Virus record (IMG/VR): IMGVR_UViG_2547132255_000004
Source: a virus
Lineage: Duplodnaviria; Heunggongvirae; Uroviricota; Caudoviricetes
Strand: one strand, 5' to 3'
DNA length: 44,605 nt
Under the pieces are notes generated by a model. The model ran no database searches. It had not been told where the DNA came from and worked only from the letters and a program-made list of their open reading frames with translations. Below, piece after piece: positions 3,921 through 17,925 of the stretch. Positions within the stretch are counted from its first letter, which is position 1. Each line of letters opens with the position of its first letter. A program made the position numbers and the translations under genes.

Positions 3921-6661
<2,741 letters not shown>

Positions 6662-7038: not shown

Positions 7039-7245
7039 TTAGTGATTCAGGCCGTTGCCGCGTCCGTCGAGAAAAATTTCCACGAGCAAGTCACGGGTAT
7101 AAGTGCGCTCGATGCCGCGATGAAGATAAAGCCGTCCGCGTAGATTAGCTGATGCAGTCCAGGTACCATCTTTGTGTTTGACCAGCATTCCTGGCATGAC
7201 CGCACCGCGATTAACGGTCTGCGTTCCGTAATGTTGATGAACCAT
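7039..7245 (-). CDS. Small early-left protein (68 aa) in the kil/cIII position; identity uncertain
   Basis: Internal ATG (MVHQHYGTQTVNRGAVMPGMLVKHKDGTW...) preceded by a good RBS (GGCAGGAG, 6 nt spacer) inside the 136-aa ORF 7039..7449; sits immediately downstream of the pL-side region and upstream of gam. Confidence 0.45.
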   Translation of the reverse strand: MVHQHYGTQTVNRGAVMPGMLVKHKDGTWTASANLRGRLYLHRGIERTYTRDLLVEIFLDGRGNGLNH

Positions 7246-7494
7246 AAAAACTCCTGCCCGTAAGCTGGGCTGCTGAACATATAGAGACTTCTGCGCGTAT
7301 TCAGGCGGTGGATGGCCGCCGGTTGTCATAACTAAGCCGCCTCGTTGAAGCGACTGAGGTATGAAGTGTTGAGTTGATTTCAGCTGGTCACACCGACGTT
7401 CACGCGTCCGCTTCACCCCTCGCACTCCCCGGAGCCTGCTGAAATTCAAGCTGCGGATCTAAGCGGTCATCGCAACGGTGAATCAGGTGATTGC

Positions 7495-7566
7495 CGTATC
7501 GTTGTGTTGTTGCGACATGGTGATAATAGCTATTGCTATTGATGATATCAATACTTATTGCTATTG
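7495..7566 (-). promoter_or_regulatory. Putative OL/pL-like operator-promoter region
   Basis: Repeated TTGCTATTG motifs flanking a near-palindrome ATTGATGATATCAAT; the same motif recurs in the cI-cro intergenic region; lies just downstream of the terminator that ends the cI operon, as pL does in lambda. Confidence 0.35.
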
Positions 7567-8658
7567 CTAGATGTGTTTTGATATTAAATGTTTGATAGCA
7601 AAAAGAATTAATTTTGTGACTTGCATCGCATAGCGATAACTGAAGCGGGGTTGTGGTGGTTTTTTGAACGGTGTGTGTGATGAGGGGAGGCAAAAGAAAA
7701 CCCGGCACGGTGGCCGGGTAGCATCACTATTCGATTTTTTAACCATGTAGTTACGTCGTGATGTTCCTAATCTTTCATTGTGAATCTCAGAAACGCTTAC
7801 TACGAGCGATATTCGTTCACCAACTTTATATTTACTTTGAATTTCTCCTAACATATCAATCGGATAAGAAGCCTTTATTTTTCCAAGCTCGCTTGCAATC
7901 TCCAATTTCCCGTACATGGATAAAATAGCAAGTTCGCCTGATATATGCTCATCCGGTAGCTGAATGACCTTCGTTAAAGCTAAGCGAGCATTCAGTTTTT
8001 TTATATCTTCTGAAGAAATCGACACTTGTCTGGTACCATCACTTAAAGGTCCAATCCAAGTAAGATCAAAGTTAAGACTATATTTTTCGCACTCATTTAT
8101 GATGTTTTTTAGGTTAGCTGTTGATTGCGAACCAATTTCGGCAATTTTAGCTGTGAATGTTTCTTCATCAATGGATGAGAGTAGTGCAAAAATCTCCTTA
8201 ACAGCATGACTGGATACTGTTTCGATGAGCTCGCAAGAACCAGTAGAAAAAGTAACACCTAACTTCGTCGAACCTGGACGCAAGTCTGCCAATCTCATGT
8301 CTAATGATTTTTTAACATCAATCGGCACACGACTAGAATCTTTCCCAGATCCAAATCGGTAAACTGCTTTCTGTACAAGGGATGCGAGATTACCTGAAAT
8401 TACAGATAGAATATCTAACGGAATAGACCCGAAATCGACCAAAACACCTTTTAATCTCAACTCCATGAAATCACGTAAAGGATGTTGGTTATCGATTGCA
8501 CGTTGTCTCTCTCGGAGATCGCTCAGATGGGAGTCAAGTGATCTAAATATAATGTCATCAGCAAATGATCTCCCCTTATTTTGAGCAAGCAGATCCACAT
8601 CGCGTTGAATGAACGCAATTCGCTCCTTGAGGGAGTTGAATGTTTTTTCTTCGCTCAT
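7567..8658 (-). CDS. Hypothetical 363-aa protein, second gene of the cI-downstream operon; C-terminal about 55 codons are probably read-through
   Basis: Start overlaps the stop of the upstream 157-aa gene (ATGA coupling); coiled-coil-like, charged sequence; the 3' end of the ORF runs through a terminator hairpin and the operator-like repeats with low-complexity translation. Confidence 0.6.
   Translation of the reverse strand: MSEEKTFNSLKERIAFIQRDVDLLAQNKGRSFADDIIFRSLDSHLSDLRERQRAIDNQHPLRDFMELRLKGVLVDFGSIPLDILSVISGNLASLVQKAVYRFGSGKDSSRVPIDVKKSLDMRLADLRPGSTKLGVTFSTGSCELIETVSSHAVKEIFALLSSIDEETFTAKIAEIGSQSTANLKNIINECEKYSLNFDLTWIGPLSDGTRQVSISSEDIKKLNARLALTKVIQLPDEHISGELAILSMYGKLEIASELGKIKASYPIDMLGEIQSKYKVGERISLVVSVSEIHNERLGTSRRNYMVKKSNSDATRPPCRVFFCLPSSHTPFKKPPQPRFSYRYAMQVTKLILFAIKHLISKHI
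7691..7718 (-). terminator. Rho-independent terminator (minus strand) at the end of the cI-downstream operon
   Basis: Stem CCCGGC/GCCGGG with 6-nt loop, followed on the minus strand by TTTTCTTTTG. Confidence 0.5.
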
Positions 8659-9128
8659 AACATTACCCTCACGAGGCCTTTAGGATTCTCCTTCCGATCA
8701 AAACCAAACCACCCTCTCCAGTAACTTCGCCTTTCACTATAATCGATTTCTGGATGATTTTCAGGCAGCAAAAGAACGTCAATGCTGTAGTTTTCTTTAA
8801 TAAAATCTCTATTTAACAATGAGCTAACCAATGGCATCAGCGTGTTTGGCAAAGAGTTTAGGGCCAAATAATCGACGACCACGAGTATATCTATGTCATC
8901 AGGTTCAGGTTTCTCTGTAGTGAATGAACCATCGATCCACACTTCAGAGAAACATAGACACTGCTGATTAACAAGTTTAAATTGCTCAATAAGCTGTATA
9001 AAATTACAGTATAGCATACTTCTTCTAACGGATTTTGGGAAGGTGTCGACACAAAGAGACTTGATGCCATCACTATCCATATCATGAAATCCTGCTGTAA
9101 GAAGAGGTGGGAAGCTAGGCTTTTCCAT
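8655..9128 (-). CDS. Minimal nucleotidyltransferase-like protein (157 aa), first gene after cI
   Basis: Motif WIDGSFTTEKPEPDDIDILVVVD fits the Pol-beta-superfamily signature hG[GS]-x9-13-DhDh; gene starts about 80 bp downstream of the cI stop on the same strand. Confidence 0.6.
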   Translation of the reverse strand: MEKPSFPPLLTAGFHDMDSDGIKSLCVDTFPKSVRRSMLYCNFIQLIEQFKLVNQQCLCFSEVWIDGSFTTEKPEPDDIDILVVVDYLALNSLPNTLMPLVSSLLNRDFIKENYSIDVLLLPENHPEIDYSERRSYWRGWFGFDRKENPKGLVRVML

Positions 9129-9209: not shown

Positions 9210-9902
9210 TTAACCATGCTTCCTGTACGTCTGCGGCATGCTCCCAATAACCTTACCGAAGATGAACACCCGGTTCATCTCGTCTTTCTCGATCGGGTCC
9301 CACGGTGAGTAGCTCTTGTTATCAGAGATAACCAGTAGCTTATCCTTCATCATTTGCAGGCGCTTTACATGGGCTGTGTCGTCGTACAGAAACGCATAGA
9401 TACCATCACCGTCGAAAGATTTAACTGTGATATCAACGAACAGCAGATCACCTGGTTCGATCGTTCCTGACATGCTGTCACCACGCACGTTAATGATGCG
9501 GATATTTTCCGCCTTCCTGCCATCGAACATGTGACGAGCATCGTCAAACGAGTACTCAACCGAGCGTAGAACTTCTACAAACTCACGGTTGATTACACCC
9601 GGCCCGGCACTGACTTCTATATCAAGAACGTCAATTTTGAAGTATTTGGAATGGCTGACAGCAGGCTTCCCTGATTGTTGACCGTCATTTCTCATCGGGC
9701 CTATGCCTGATGAGAGCCATTCTGTTCGAACACCCAATGCATTAGCTATTTCAACAATTTTTGTTGAGCCGCGCGCGTTGCCGCTTGTCAGTCTCCAGAT
9801 TGTGGGTTGAGCTACGCCAGACGCCTTTGCAAGAGCGCCTTGAGACATTCCAGATTGTTCCATCGCTAGGTTTAAGCGATCAGCAAGAGTTTCTTTTTTC
9901 AT
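9210..9902 (-). CDS. cI: CI-type prophage repressor (HTH + S24 LexA-like peptidase domain)
   Basis: N-terminal HTH (MSQGALAKASGVAQPTIWRL); C-terminal autopeptidase motifs (GDSM serine, downstream VKRL lysine); divergent from the cro-like gene; start set at the internal ATG (MKKETL) because the ORF-track start at 9938 is a TTG. Confidence 0.85.
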   Translation of the reverse strand: MKKETLADRLNLAMEQSGMSQGALAKASGVAQPTIWRLTSGNARGSTKIVEIANALGVRTEWLSSGIGPMRNDGQQSGKPAVSHSKYFKIDVLDIEVSAGPGVINREFVEVLRSVEYSFDDARHMFDGRKAENIRIINVRGDSMSGTIEPGDLLFVDITVKSFDGDGIYAFLYDDTAHVKRLQMMKDKLLVISDNKSYSPWDPIEKDEMNRVFIFGKVIGSMPQTYRKHG

Positions 9903-10006
9903 AAGTTTTAATTTATACGCTTGCGTATTGATGGTCAAAACACGTTTTGCTATTGCTTGAGTTAATACGCATTGCTATTATTCATTCATTGCAATACTAA
10001 TAGGAA
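9903..10006. promoter_or_regulatory. Putative OR operator / pR-pRM region between cI and cro
   Basis: Divergent cI/cro intergenic region containing palindrome ATACGCTTGCGTAT (about 9915-9928) and TTGCTATTG-type motifs shared with the putative OL. Confidence 0.4.
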
Positions 10007-13100: not shown

Positions 13101-13853
13101 ATGGATCCTAAATTACTGTATGCCACGTTTAAACGAAATGACGCACCAGCTTGGCGCTGCCCGAACTGTATGAATGAAACACTGGAGATTGTCGCTGATA
13201 GTTTTGTAGAAACTGATTCAAGCGCAACAACTCAGTTTAGAGATGAAGTATGGTTTGATGAGGAAATGTCGGGAGGAGTATTCAGTTGCGTGCTGCGCTG
13301 TACCCGCCAAGCCTGCCAGGAGAAGGTTGCTTTGTCTGGGCAGGTTGTTGTTGTAGAATGCTTCAATGACGAAATGACGGAGCGTTGGTATGTTTCTGGT
13401 TTCCGTCCTAAGTATTTCTATCCACCACTTCCTCTATTCCTGTTTCCTGAAAAGTGCCCTGAAGATATAGCTGATCTCTTGGCGGAAGTATCAGCTCTGA
13501 TCCCCTCGCACCCAGCTTCAGCGGTGAACACCATGAGAACCATACTGGAGATGATGCTTGATAGTCTTGATGTACCAAGAGAGAAAACAGTTAAAGGCAA
13601 GATAATACGTCTTTCTACGCATGAAAGAATCACAAATTATTCAGATAAACTGGGACCAAATAAAGATGCATTCATGGCGTTAAAGTGGTTGGGGAATCAC
13701 GGCAGTCATGGAGGGATTAAAGTCACAAGGTCCTCTATTAATGATGCCTGCATTCTCATTGGTCATTTGATTGACTTCTTATTCTTAGAAAGCCCGGATG
13801 TAACTATTCATATTGAACGGATAAACAACGTGTATGCACCCAAAAAGGAGTAA
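13101..13853 (+). CDS. Hypothetical 250-aa protein with N-terminal zinc-ribbon-like cysteine cluster
   Basis: CPNC...(about 38 aa)...CVLRCTRQAC cysteine pattern; RBS GGAG upstream; C-terminal region contains LKWLGNHGSHGG; sits in the cargo position between ren and ninB. Confidence 0.6.
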   Translation: MDPKLLYATFKRNDAPAWRCPNCMNETLEIVADSFVETDSSATTQFRDEVWFDEEMSGGVFSCVLRCTRQACQEKVALSGQVVVVECFNDEMTERWYVSGFRPKYFYPPLPLFLFPEKCPEDIADLLAEVSALIPSHPASAVNTMRTILEMMLDSLDVPREKTVKGKIIRLSTHERITNYSDKLGPNKDAFMALKWLGNHGSHGGIKVTRSSINDACILIGHLIDFLFLESPDVTIHIERINNVYAPKKE

Positions 13854-16842: not shown

Positions 16843-17925
16843 TTAGAACTGATAAACCAGACCTACAGCGACGATGTCGTCGGTATCAATACCAGCTGTT
16901 TTGGTAAACTTACTATCGTCAATTAAGTTGATTTTGTAATCAACAAAAGTGGACATGTTTTTATTAAAGTAGTAAGTAGCACCGACATCGACATACTTGA
17001 CTAAGTCTCGGTCACCATGAACACCAAGGTCTTTACCTTTTGACTGAAGGTAAGCAACAGATGGTCGCAGACCGAAGTCAAACTGATATTGTGCTACTGC
17101 TTCAAAGTTTTGTGCTTTGTTTGCAATATGGTTATTACCAAAAACGGTCATATTCTGAGTTTCAGAATATGTGGTAGCCAGATAGATATTGTTCGCATCA
17201 TATTTCAGGCCTGCAGCCCATACTTCCGCATTTTTGCCGGAGGCATTGAATTTGCTCTTACCATAGGCGACCTGACCGTCAGTGCGATCTGATTTAGCAT
17301 AGGTTGCACCCACGCCGAATCCTTCATACTCATAAGTAGTGGAGAAACCGAAACCATCACCATTGGCTTCAGTTACGTCAGTGCGGTCATTTTTACCCTG
17401 ATACTGAGCAGCAAAGTTCAGGCCATCGACCAGACCAAAGAAGTCGTTGTTACGATAAGTTGCAACACCAGTAGTGCGACCAGTCATGAACACATCTGTT
17501 TGGGTCCAGGTATCACCACCGAATTCTGGCAGGACGTCAGTCCACGCACCGATGTCGTATGCTACACCGTAGTTACGGCCGTAATCGATTGAGCCGTAAT
17601 CACCAAATTTCAGGCCTGCAAATGCAAGACGGGTTTTGTCTTTGGAAGAACCTTGAGATTCAGCACGGTTGCCTTTGAATTCATATTCCCACTGACCGAA
17701 ACCAGTCAGTTGATCGTTGATTTGGGTTTCACCTTTGAAGCCAAGACGGGCATAAGTAGTATCACCATCATCTGCATCATTAGAGGAGAAGTAGTGCTTG
17801 GCATTAACTTTCCCGTATAGATCCAGCTTGTTACTGTCTTTATTATAAATTTCAGCTGCCTGAGCAGACATCGCCATCAGTACTGATGCAGCTACAGCAG
17901 AAATTGCCACTGTTAATTTTTTCAT
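16843..17925 (-). CDS. nmpC: Outer-membrane general porin, OmpC/OmpF family (NmpC/Lc-type prophage porin)
   Basis: 360-aa protein with signal peptide ([23 protein letters not shown]), porin motifs and C-terminal ...VAVGLVYQF; located between Q and the holin as nmpC is in DLP12. Confidence 0.92.

Follow-up and report, generated by a model that had tools for sequence, protein, structure and literature searches.

Immediately downstream of the cI repressor gene of an Escherichia coli lambdoid prophage lies a pair of overlapping genes, here called A and B, that we assign by profile matches to PDC-M63, a candidate system already catalogued in PADLOC. The prophage makes up IMG/VR record IMGVR_UViG_2547132255_000004, a stretch of 44,605 nucleotides (the window) that runs from integrase through tail fibres; a near-identical prophage is integrated beside icd in E. 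coli NGF1. PDC-M designates a multi-gene "phage defence candidate". Within PDC-M63, A represents DUF6932 (phrog_9194), and B represents an unnamed family of 310-amino-acid (aa) proteins (phrog_6603). The first-pass annotation, made from the letters of the window, had not recognised the pair as a named defence system. We read the locus tentatively, and with slightly more doubt than belief, as a lysogen-expressed accessory ('moron') operon in the cargo slot between cI and OL/pL, working as a toxin-antitoxin (TA) or abortive-infection module similar to MntA-HepT. Defence is predicted for the pair, not demonstrated.

A PADLOC run on the locus, one of the checks proposed at the outset, matched both families, and the two proteins do so end to end, from adjacent, overlapping genes on one strand. 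Protein A aligns over residues 1-156 with positions 1-148 of 152 in the PDC-M63A model PDLC04744 (7.4e-43) and also matches Pfam DUF6932 (4e-26) and phrog_9194 (2e-69). Protein B matches six PDC-M63B models (best 1.2e-41) and phrog_6603 (2e-175). Profile searches with both proteins, also proposed at the outset, identified A as a DUF6932 nucleotidyltransferase (NTase) and gave B no Pfam family and no consistent HEPN match.

The minimal NTase signature G[GS]-x9-13-DxD that had been read in A is upheld by its relatives. Among 36 diverse homologues, down to 36% identity, G67, S68, D78 and D80 are invariant, the third carboxylate (D117) is at least 90% conserved, and a C-terminal motif, RSYWRGWFGFDR-x-E-x-PKG, is conserved as well. 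The AlphaFold model of A (predicted local distance difference test, pLDDT, 96.2) contains the Pol-beta NTase core fold, and the structures closest to it are those of minimal NTases, among them the MNT antitoxins 8xeh_E, 7ae2_B, 5yep_A and HI0073. From profile, invariant motif and predicted fold we conclude with high confidence that A is a minimal Pol-beta-type NTase. Its predicted catalytic residues are intact, and A is probably catalytically competent. Searches by sequence found no significant relative of A or B in the PDB. Separately, residues 133-151 of A (window 8676-8732), which carry the motif RSYWRGWFGFDRxExPKG, align with ribosome modulation factor 2jrm (RSYWLGGWRDARDEKQSG) at E=0.34 only; the likeness may be due to chance and, if real, would hint at contact with rRNA or another RNA.

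Protein B is harder to name. It has no Pfam or NCBIfam family and no recognisable catalytic motif, in keeping with the first impression that the partner carries no nameable motif. A structure model built from 30 close homologues (mean pLDDT 70, residues 60-150 poor) predicts, from N to C terminus, a helical hairpin, a central region, a mixed helical/beta segment and a barrel of five strands. The barrel (~ residues 229-310), in which a helix separates the third strand from the fourth, is a predicted OB fold, and a fold search likens it to SSB, RPA and the anticodon-binding domains of AsnRS and LysRS. Conservation, calculated from 136 diverse members, is strongest in the poorly modelled central part and not in the OB domain. 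Here two motifs stand out, E-x-ELRLxG-x5-G-xx-PL and LRLAG-xxx-GS; Ser130 is present in all 136 sequences, and Gly129 and Trp201 each in 135.

Two further ideas about B were rejected. A hint of a HEPN domain had been seen in an Rx4H match (FRSLDSH), but close homologues have N or D in place of R39 and Y in place of H44; the pattern is not conserved, and among the 136 sequences only stray single-member matches to HEPN profiles occur. A SAVED/CARF-like sensor was suggested by a match to 9r8s (E 0.81) with a shallow profile, and this match disappears with the 136-sequence profile.

The pairing of A and B is obligate. An A-pattern scan of one genome per species returned 80 loci from Proteobacteria, Bacteroidota, Nitrospirota, Acidobacteriota, Planctomycetota, Verrucomicrobiota, Patescibacteria, Firmicutes and others. 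B homologues were collected by two hidden Markov model iterations, and one lies directly downstream of A in 79 of these loci; in the last locus the contig breaks off immediately behind A. Most often the two genes share 4 bases where they meet. When loci were instead chosen by B, A was upstream in all 55 assessable viral loci and likewise upstream of 6 of 6 diverse B representatives examined one by one, in one of which the gene caller had missed it. No third conserved gene accompanies the pair, and the neighbours vary. An exhaustive profile search placed B homologues in 274 clusters at 50% identity, nearly all of 300-330 aa, and none of the clusters showed a domain fusion, including fusion of A to B. 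Overall, the distribution is patchy, horizontally mobile and low in GC: the pair occurs in ~ 2% of complete E. coli genomes, and its GC content is 37-42% vs 51-54% in the flanks.

So, does the pair occupy the slot that lambda uses for rexA-rexB? The first-pass annotation had placed it there, downstream of cI on the same strand and ahead of a terminator and OL/pL, and scans for domains, terminators, promoters and repeats confirm the placement. The order on the minus strand is cI, gene A, gene B, intrinsic terminator, OL/pL, with the following features (window coordinates).

9939..9980 (9939-9954 and 9964-9979), no strand assigned: OR operator repeats AACACGTTTTGCTATT and AATACGCATTGCTATT, 25-bp spacing (repeat search)
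9910..9938, minus strand: pRM-like promoter TTGACC-17-TAAATT (consensus scan)
9210..9902, minus strand: cI-type prophage repressor with HTH and S24 autopeptidase domains (Pfam Peptidase_S24 1.5e-18, HTH_3 1.5e-6)
8655..9128, minus strand: gene A, 157-aa predicted minimal Pol-beta-fold NTase (DUF6932, PDC-M63A, phrog_9194) with G67-S68, D78, D80 and D117
7727..8658, minus strand: gene B in its native extent, 310 aa (PDC-M63B, phrog_6603; comparison with relatives)
7735..7740, minus strand: A6 homopolymer, A7 in relatives (alignment with NGF1 and PhiR30_1; translation comparison)
7567..7726, minus strand: frameshift read-through tail of the B open reading frame (ORF), ~ 53 extra codons plus stop (alignment, translation)
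7719..7700, minus strand: intrinsic terminator hairpin of 7 bp (6 GC), then T tract TTTTCTTTT (terminator scan)
7550-7566 and 7525-7541, minus strand: OL operators, two 17-nt repeats (repeat search)
7551..7523, minus strand: pL promoter TTGATA-17-TATTAT, overlapping the OL operators (promoter scan)

The OL repeats have a motif, AATAnnnATTGCTATTG, and a 25-bp spacing in common with the two repeats between cI and cro (OR), which bears out the earlier suggestion of OL/pL at this site. The ORF finder extended cI to 9210..9938 (242 aa, TTG start). This is probably too long; the ATG at 9902 is the likelier start and yields a 230-aa protein, as annotated in NGF1, where the counterpart is a 693-nt XRE-family regulator (in PhiR30_1 it is annotated as cI). 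The PhiR phage records, among them PhiR30_1, which carries the same pair, may derive from Brenes & Laub 2025 (Cell Host Microbe). The pRM-like promoter is the likely source of a cI-A-B transcript. Its start would fall at about the A of the cI ATG (9902), an inferred position from which the cI mRNA, like that of lambda, would lack a leader. The hairpin at 7700-7719 is the end of the cI-A-B unit and the analogue of lambda tImm.

Between cI and A the terminator scan predicted no minus-strand terminator, and for this reason co-transcription of the pair with cI is plausible. Expression of A and B with the repressor in the lysogen, as earlier proposed, is accordingly a plausible prediction from this layout, and the position in the rexAB slot makes lysogenic expression presumable. 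Gene A follows cI after an 81-nt spacer with the ribosome-binding site AAGGA. A (8655..9128, 157 aa) and the B ORF of the window (7567..8658, 363 aa), both on the minus strand, share the 4 bases ATGA; the ATG of B overlaps the TGA of A, with GAGGG just upstream, and the overlap is consistent with translational coupling. An internal promoter for B, comparable to lambda pLIT, was considered and rejected: two sites inside A match the consensus at 9/12 positions, but promoter-like sites are no commoner here than in shuffled sequence. An Rfam scan of the whole window returned no RNA family.

The partner of A had been described as a 363-aa protein, a length that turns out to be a frameshift product of A6 vs A7. 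B homologues are ~ 310 aa in every relative. In the A7 copies of NGF1 and PhiR30_1, B ends in ...NYMVKKIE*, the stop being equivalent to window 7727-7729 and separated by 8 nt from the terminator stem that follows. In the window, a 1-base deletion in the run shifts the frame 2 codons before this stop, exchanging the last 2 residues for a 55-residue tail that crosses the terminator, and the ORF stops at 7567, 1 base short of the OL operators. The best 25 E. coli matches listed span 1802-1805 bases vs a query of 1801 bases, consistent with none of these matches sharing the deletion. The A6 run is thus either an error in sequencing the homopolymer or a mutation private to this copy. The lesion is marginal, because the last strand of the OB domain ends at residue 309; nevertheless, the B copy in the window may be impaired by the C-terminal frameshift. 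The frameshift at the 3' end of B is also the sole structural difference between the window pair and PDC-M63, which are otherwise the same family.

The slot itself receives varied cargo. A survey of the cI-downstream position in related prophages, another check first proposed with the annotation, showed that homology with sister prophages, near-identical in their recombination and kil regions, breaks off precisely at the terminator; in the sisters that bear IS100, the last matching query position is 1620 (window 7719). In place of A and B, E. coli SCEC020001 has a HipA-family kinase and a DUF3037 protein (L140, 6154-7727), PhiR26_1 a 127-aa putative lipoprotein (L141, 2776-3156), and PhiR68_2 hypothetical proteins of 341 and 149 aa (L142, 3769-5224). 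Differing cargo in near-identical backbones indicates that the slot is a cargo hotspot. The ORF upstream of the pair on the same strand has an HTH_3 domain in 46 of 53 viral loci and Peptidase_S24 in 43. Pairwise identity among these upstream repressors falls to 16-25%, so the pair follows cI genes of several immunity types.

Outside Enterobacterales, some neighbours of the pair are type I, II, IIG and IV restriction systems, SIR2, PD-T7-4, PD-Lambda-2_B, HEC-01, AbiEi and PDC-S02, and others are mobile-element genes such as integrases and insertion sequence (IS) elements. Many are ordinary metabolic genes, for example GH2 glycosidases beside Flavobacterium copies. On unrelated metagenomic contigs (L149, 875-2940; L146, 1092-4023; L145, 238-2735) A-B was again seen next to a divergent HTH gene of the Cro/YdaS type, a regulator of the AlpA type or an integrase, which extends the association with immunity regions of mobile elements beyond Enterobacterales.

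How far does the evidence carry the suggestion that the pair is an exclusion system? Two predictors agree: PADLOC matches A and B at 7e-43 and 1e-41, and in DefensePredictor (Science 2026) an identical 310-aa B, WP_001616716.1, has a log-odds score of 5.89 (cut-off 4) and is classed as a "Predicted novel defense gene". The pair is absent from the tables of cloned or validated units in that study. We found no experimental validation of PDC-M63 in the literature and a single test, in which E. coli NILS69 lacking PDC-M63AB was exposed to 10 virulent phages and no defence activity came to light; its authors note the narrow phage panel. The suggestion therefore stands as a prediction, with the sole test found being negative.

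Comparison with known systems helps to place the pair. It shares with lambda RexA-RexB the slot and the two-gene composition. There is no sequence relation, and neither the PADLOC nor the PHROG scan returned a Rex family. Lambda RexB is a polytopic membrane protein, whereas neither A nor B has a hydrophobic segment (maximum 19-residue Kyte-Doolittle values of 1.26 and 1.54). An analogy to RexB as a membrane protein was rejected on these grounds, and the likeness to Rex is positional only.

The type VII TA system HepT-MntA offers another parallel. In mntA-hepT operons the NTase gene comes first and the genes overlap by ATGA. A-B likewise has a minimal MNT-type NTase first and an overlapping partner. 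The likeness is at the level of fold: the MNT chains matched are ~ 100-140 aa, whereas A, at 157 aa, has extra N- and C-terminal elements and its own Pfam family, and HepT is a HEPN RNase with a conserved Rx4-6H, whereas B is not HEPN and has an OB fold as its recognisable domain. AbiE and MenAT are also two-gene modules: each centres on an NTase of the Pol-beta superfamily and follows abortive-infection or TA logic. However, their DUF1814 toxins are far larger than A, their gene order is reversed relative to the NTase-first A-B, and B lacks an AbiEi-type HTH; no match of A or B to AbiEii or AbiEi was found in PADLOC or Pfam at E<=1.

Should the logic of MntA-HepT extend to PDC-M63, our proposals for the defence role, the direction of regulation, the acceptor residue and the target take the following form. 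A, encoded first and translationally coupled, would nucleotidylylate B, the candidate acceptor being the invariant Ser130 in a Gly-Ser loop. The modification would hold B inactive in the lysogen until infection by a foreign phage upset the balance between A and B and freed B. Freed B would then engage single-stranded DNA (ssDNA) or RNA through its OB domain, blocking replication or translation. Binding of single-stranded nucleic acid is the most likely function of this domain, judging by its fold class. The specifics (nucleotidylylation of B by A, Ser130 as acceptor and release on infection), argued by analogy with MntA-HepT, seem to us rather unlikely to hold as a whole.

Several observations weigh against the TA or abortive-infection reading. 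B has no recognisable toxin or enzyme domain, and pLDDT in its central region is ~ 45-55. An OB fold predicted from a model is, on its own, no proof that B binds nucleic acid, and modification of B by A is our inference from other systems. The defence genes near the pair are scattered cases drawn from a list of neighbours. The negative NILS69 deletion counts here too. A weak hint points the other way, in favour of the reading: among the 79 loci selected for an intact A, 9 have a fragmented B, and A is never missing beside an intact B. This asymmetry fits B as the harmful partner; it is suggestive at most, as the two sets were selected by different criteria.

PDC-M63 may be a real anti-phage system whose mechanism is undescribed, with A nucleotidylylating a non-HEPN, OB-fold effector, or with 3'-end tagging of phage ssDNA or RNA, and with expression from the repressor operon making it a functional replacement of RexAB. 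We consider this full statement possible, if on the doubtful side.

The roles of the two proteins could also be the reverse of those in the TA scheme, with A as the effector and B as a targeting or sensing subunit. The OB fold would bring the 3' end of an RNA or ssDNA (a tRNA acceptor stem, phage ssDNA or a primer) to A, and the addition of nucleotides by A would then stop translation or replication, much as with MenT/AbiEii toxins or with non-canonical poly(A) polymerases with a separate RNA-binding partner. The composition of the pair speaks for such a holoenzyme: A has the full catalytic set and, at its small size, no substrate-binding domain of its own, the sole recognisable domain of B is an OB fold like those of SSB, RPA and the AsnRS/LysRS anticodon-binding domains, and the strict 1:1 pairing would fit. 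Nonetheless, neither the PADLOC nor the Pfam profiles liken A to AbiEii/MenT (DUF1814). Its closest folds are protein-modifying MNTs and small-molecule ANTs, the NTase-first order is that of antitoxin-type MNTs, and conservation of B peaks in the central region rather than in the OB domain. We judge this arrangement, the main rival, unlikely.

It is also conceivable that the pair is not anti-phage at all, being either a selfish addiction module that stabilises its carrier element or an accessory of nucleic-acid metabolism that benefits the lysogen in another way. The negative result in NILS69 counts for this view, and about half of the high-scoring DefensePredictor units fail validation (overall validation rate 45%). 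Many loci outside Enterobacterales have ordinary metabolic neighbours, and the window copy tolerates a frameshift. Against it stand the patchy, mobile, low-GC distribution, the place of the pair in the classic exclusion slot across several immunity types and the agreement of two independent defence predictors; the NILS69 test, moreover, covered 10 virulent double-stranded DNA phages and one host. We hold a non-defence role to be slightly less likely again than the A-centred arrangement.

Highly improbable, finally, is a minimal signalling system akin to Pycsar or to cyclic-oligonucleotide-based anti-phage signalling systems (CBASS), in which infection would prompt A to produce a nucleotide second messenger for B, the receptor-effector: the synthase-then-effector gene order and the weak shallow-profile match of B to SAVED chain 9r8s (E 0.81) would suit it, but that match is not significant and vanishes with a deeper profile, every CD-NTase is about twice as large as A, which lacks the helical lobe and matches no CD-NTase or CBASS model in PADLOC, and B has no SAVED, STING, TIR, patatin or other known effector domain and no transmembrane segment.

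Other parts of the prophage hold further features of note. An IS21-family element similar to IS100 (istB 4464-5246, istA 5243-6265) splits the phage bet gene, leaving an N-terminal fragment at 6332-6661, and the insertion indicates that the Red recombination module of this prophage is broken. The same insertion occurs in sister prophages, for example in E. coli SCEC020001, where RefSeq annotates bet/recT as partial. On the minus strand at 7039-7449 is a 136-codon frame whose 3' half corresponds to the 68-aa Kil-like cell-division inhibitor of relatives and whose upstream half is arginine-rich (RLRGVRGVKRTRERR); no gene similar to lambda N is annotated between pL and kil in NGF1 or PhiR30_1. 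In the nin region, following a ren-like gene, a 250-aa ORF at 13101-13853 (plus strand) is a DUF4145-domain protein in NGF1 and may represent further accessory or defence-type cargo. A 360-aa ORF at 16843-17925 (minus strand), opposite to the late genes and just downstream of the Q antiterminator gene, stands where the NGF1 prophage has an OmpC-type porin; we take it to encode a porin of the lysogenic-conversion kind, comparable to Lc of phage PA-2.

RexAB, the first prophage exclusion system to be described, resides in the repressor-proximal slot of lambdoid prophages, and in near-identical backbones this slot behaves as a swap-in site for the A-B pair, a HipA kinase with a DUF3037 protein, a lipoprotein or other genes. 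Reading the pair as an exclusion system is reasonable and not new, given that the family is a catalogued, still unvalidated candidate. PDC-M63 is among the more tractable of the uncharacterised candidates, comprising two small soluble proteins with a mutable active site, strict pairing across phyla and a single invariant serine in the partner. Should defence assays keep failing, it would usefully caution against predicting candidates purely from their context. If validated, the pair would add a new effector class to NTase-based immunity or TA systems and would explain its presence in ~ 2% of complete E. coli genomes, and, if the nucleotidylylation version is true, it would represent a new branch of type VII TA biology.

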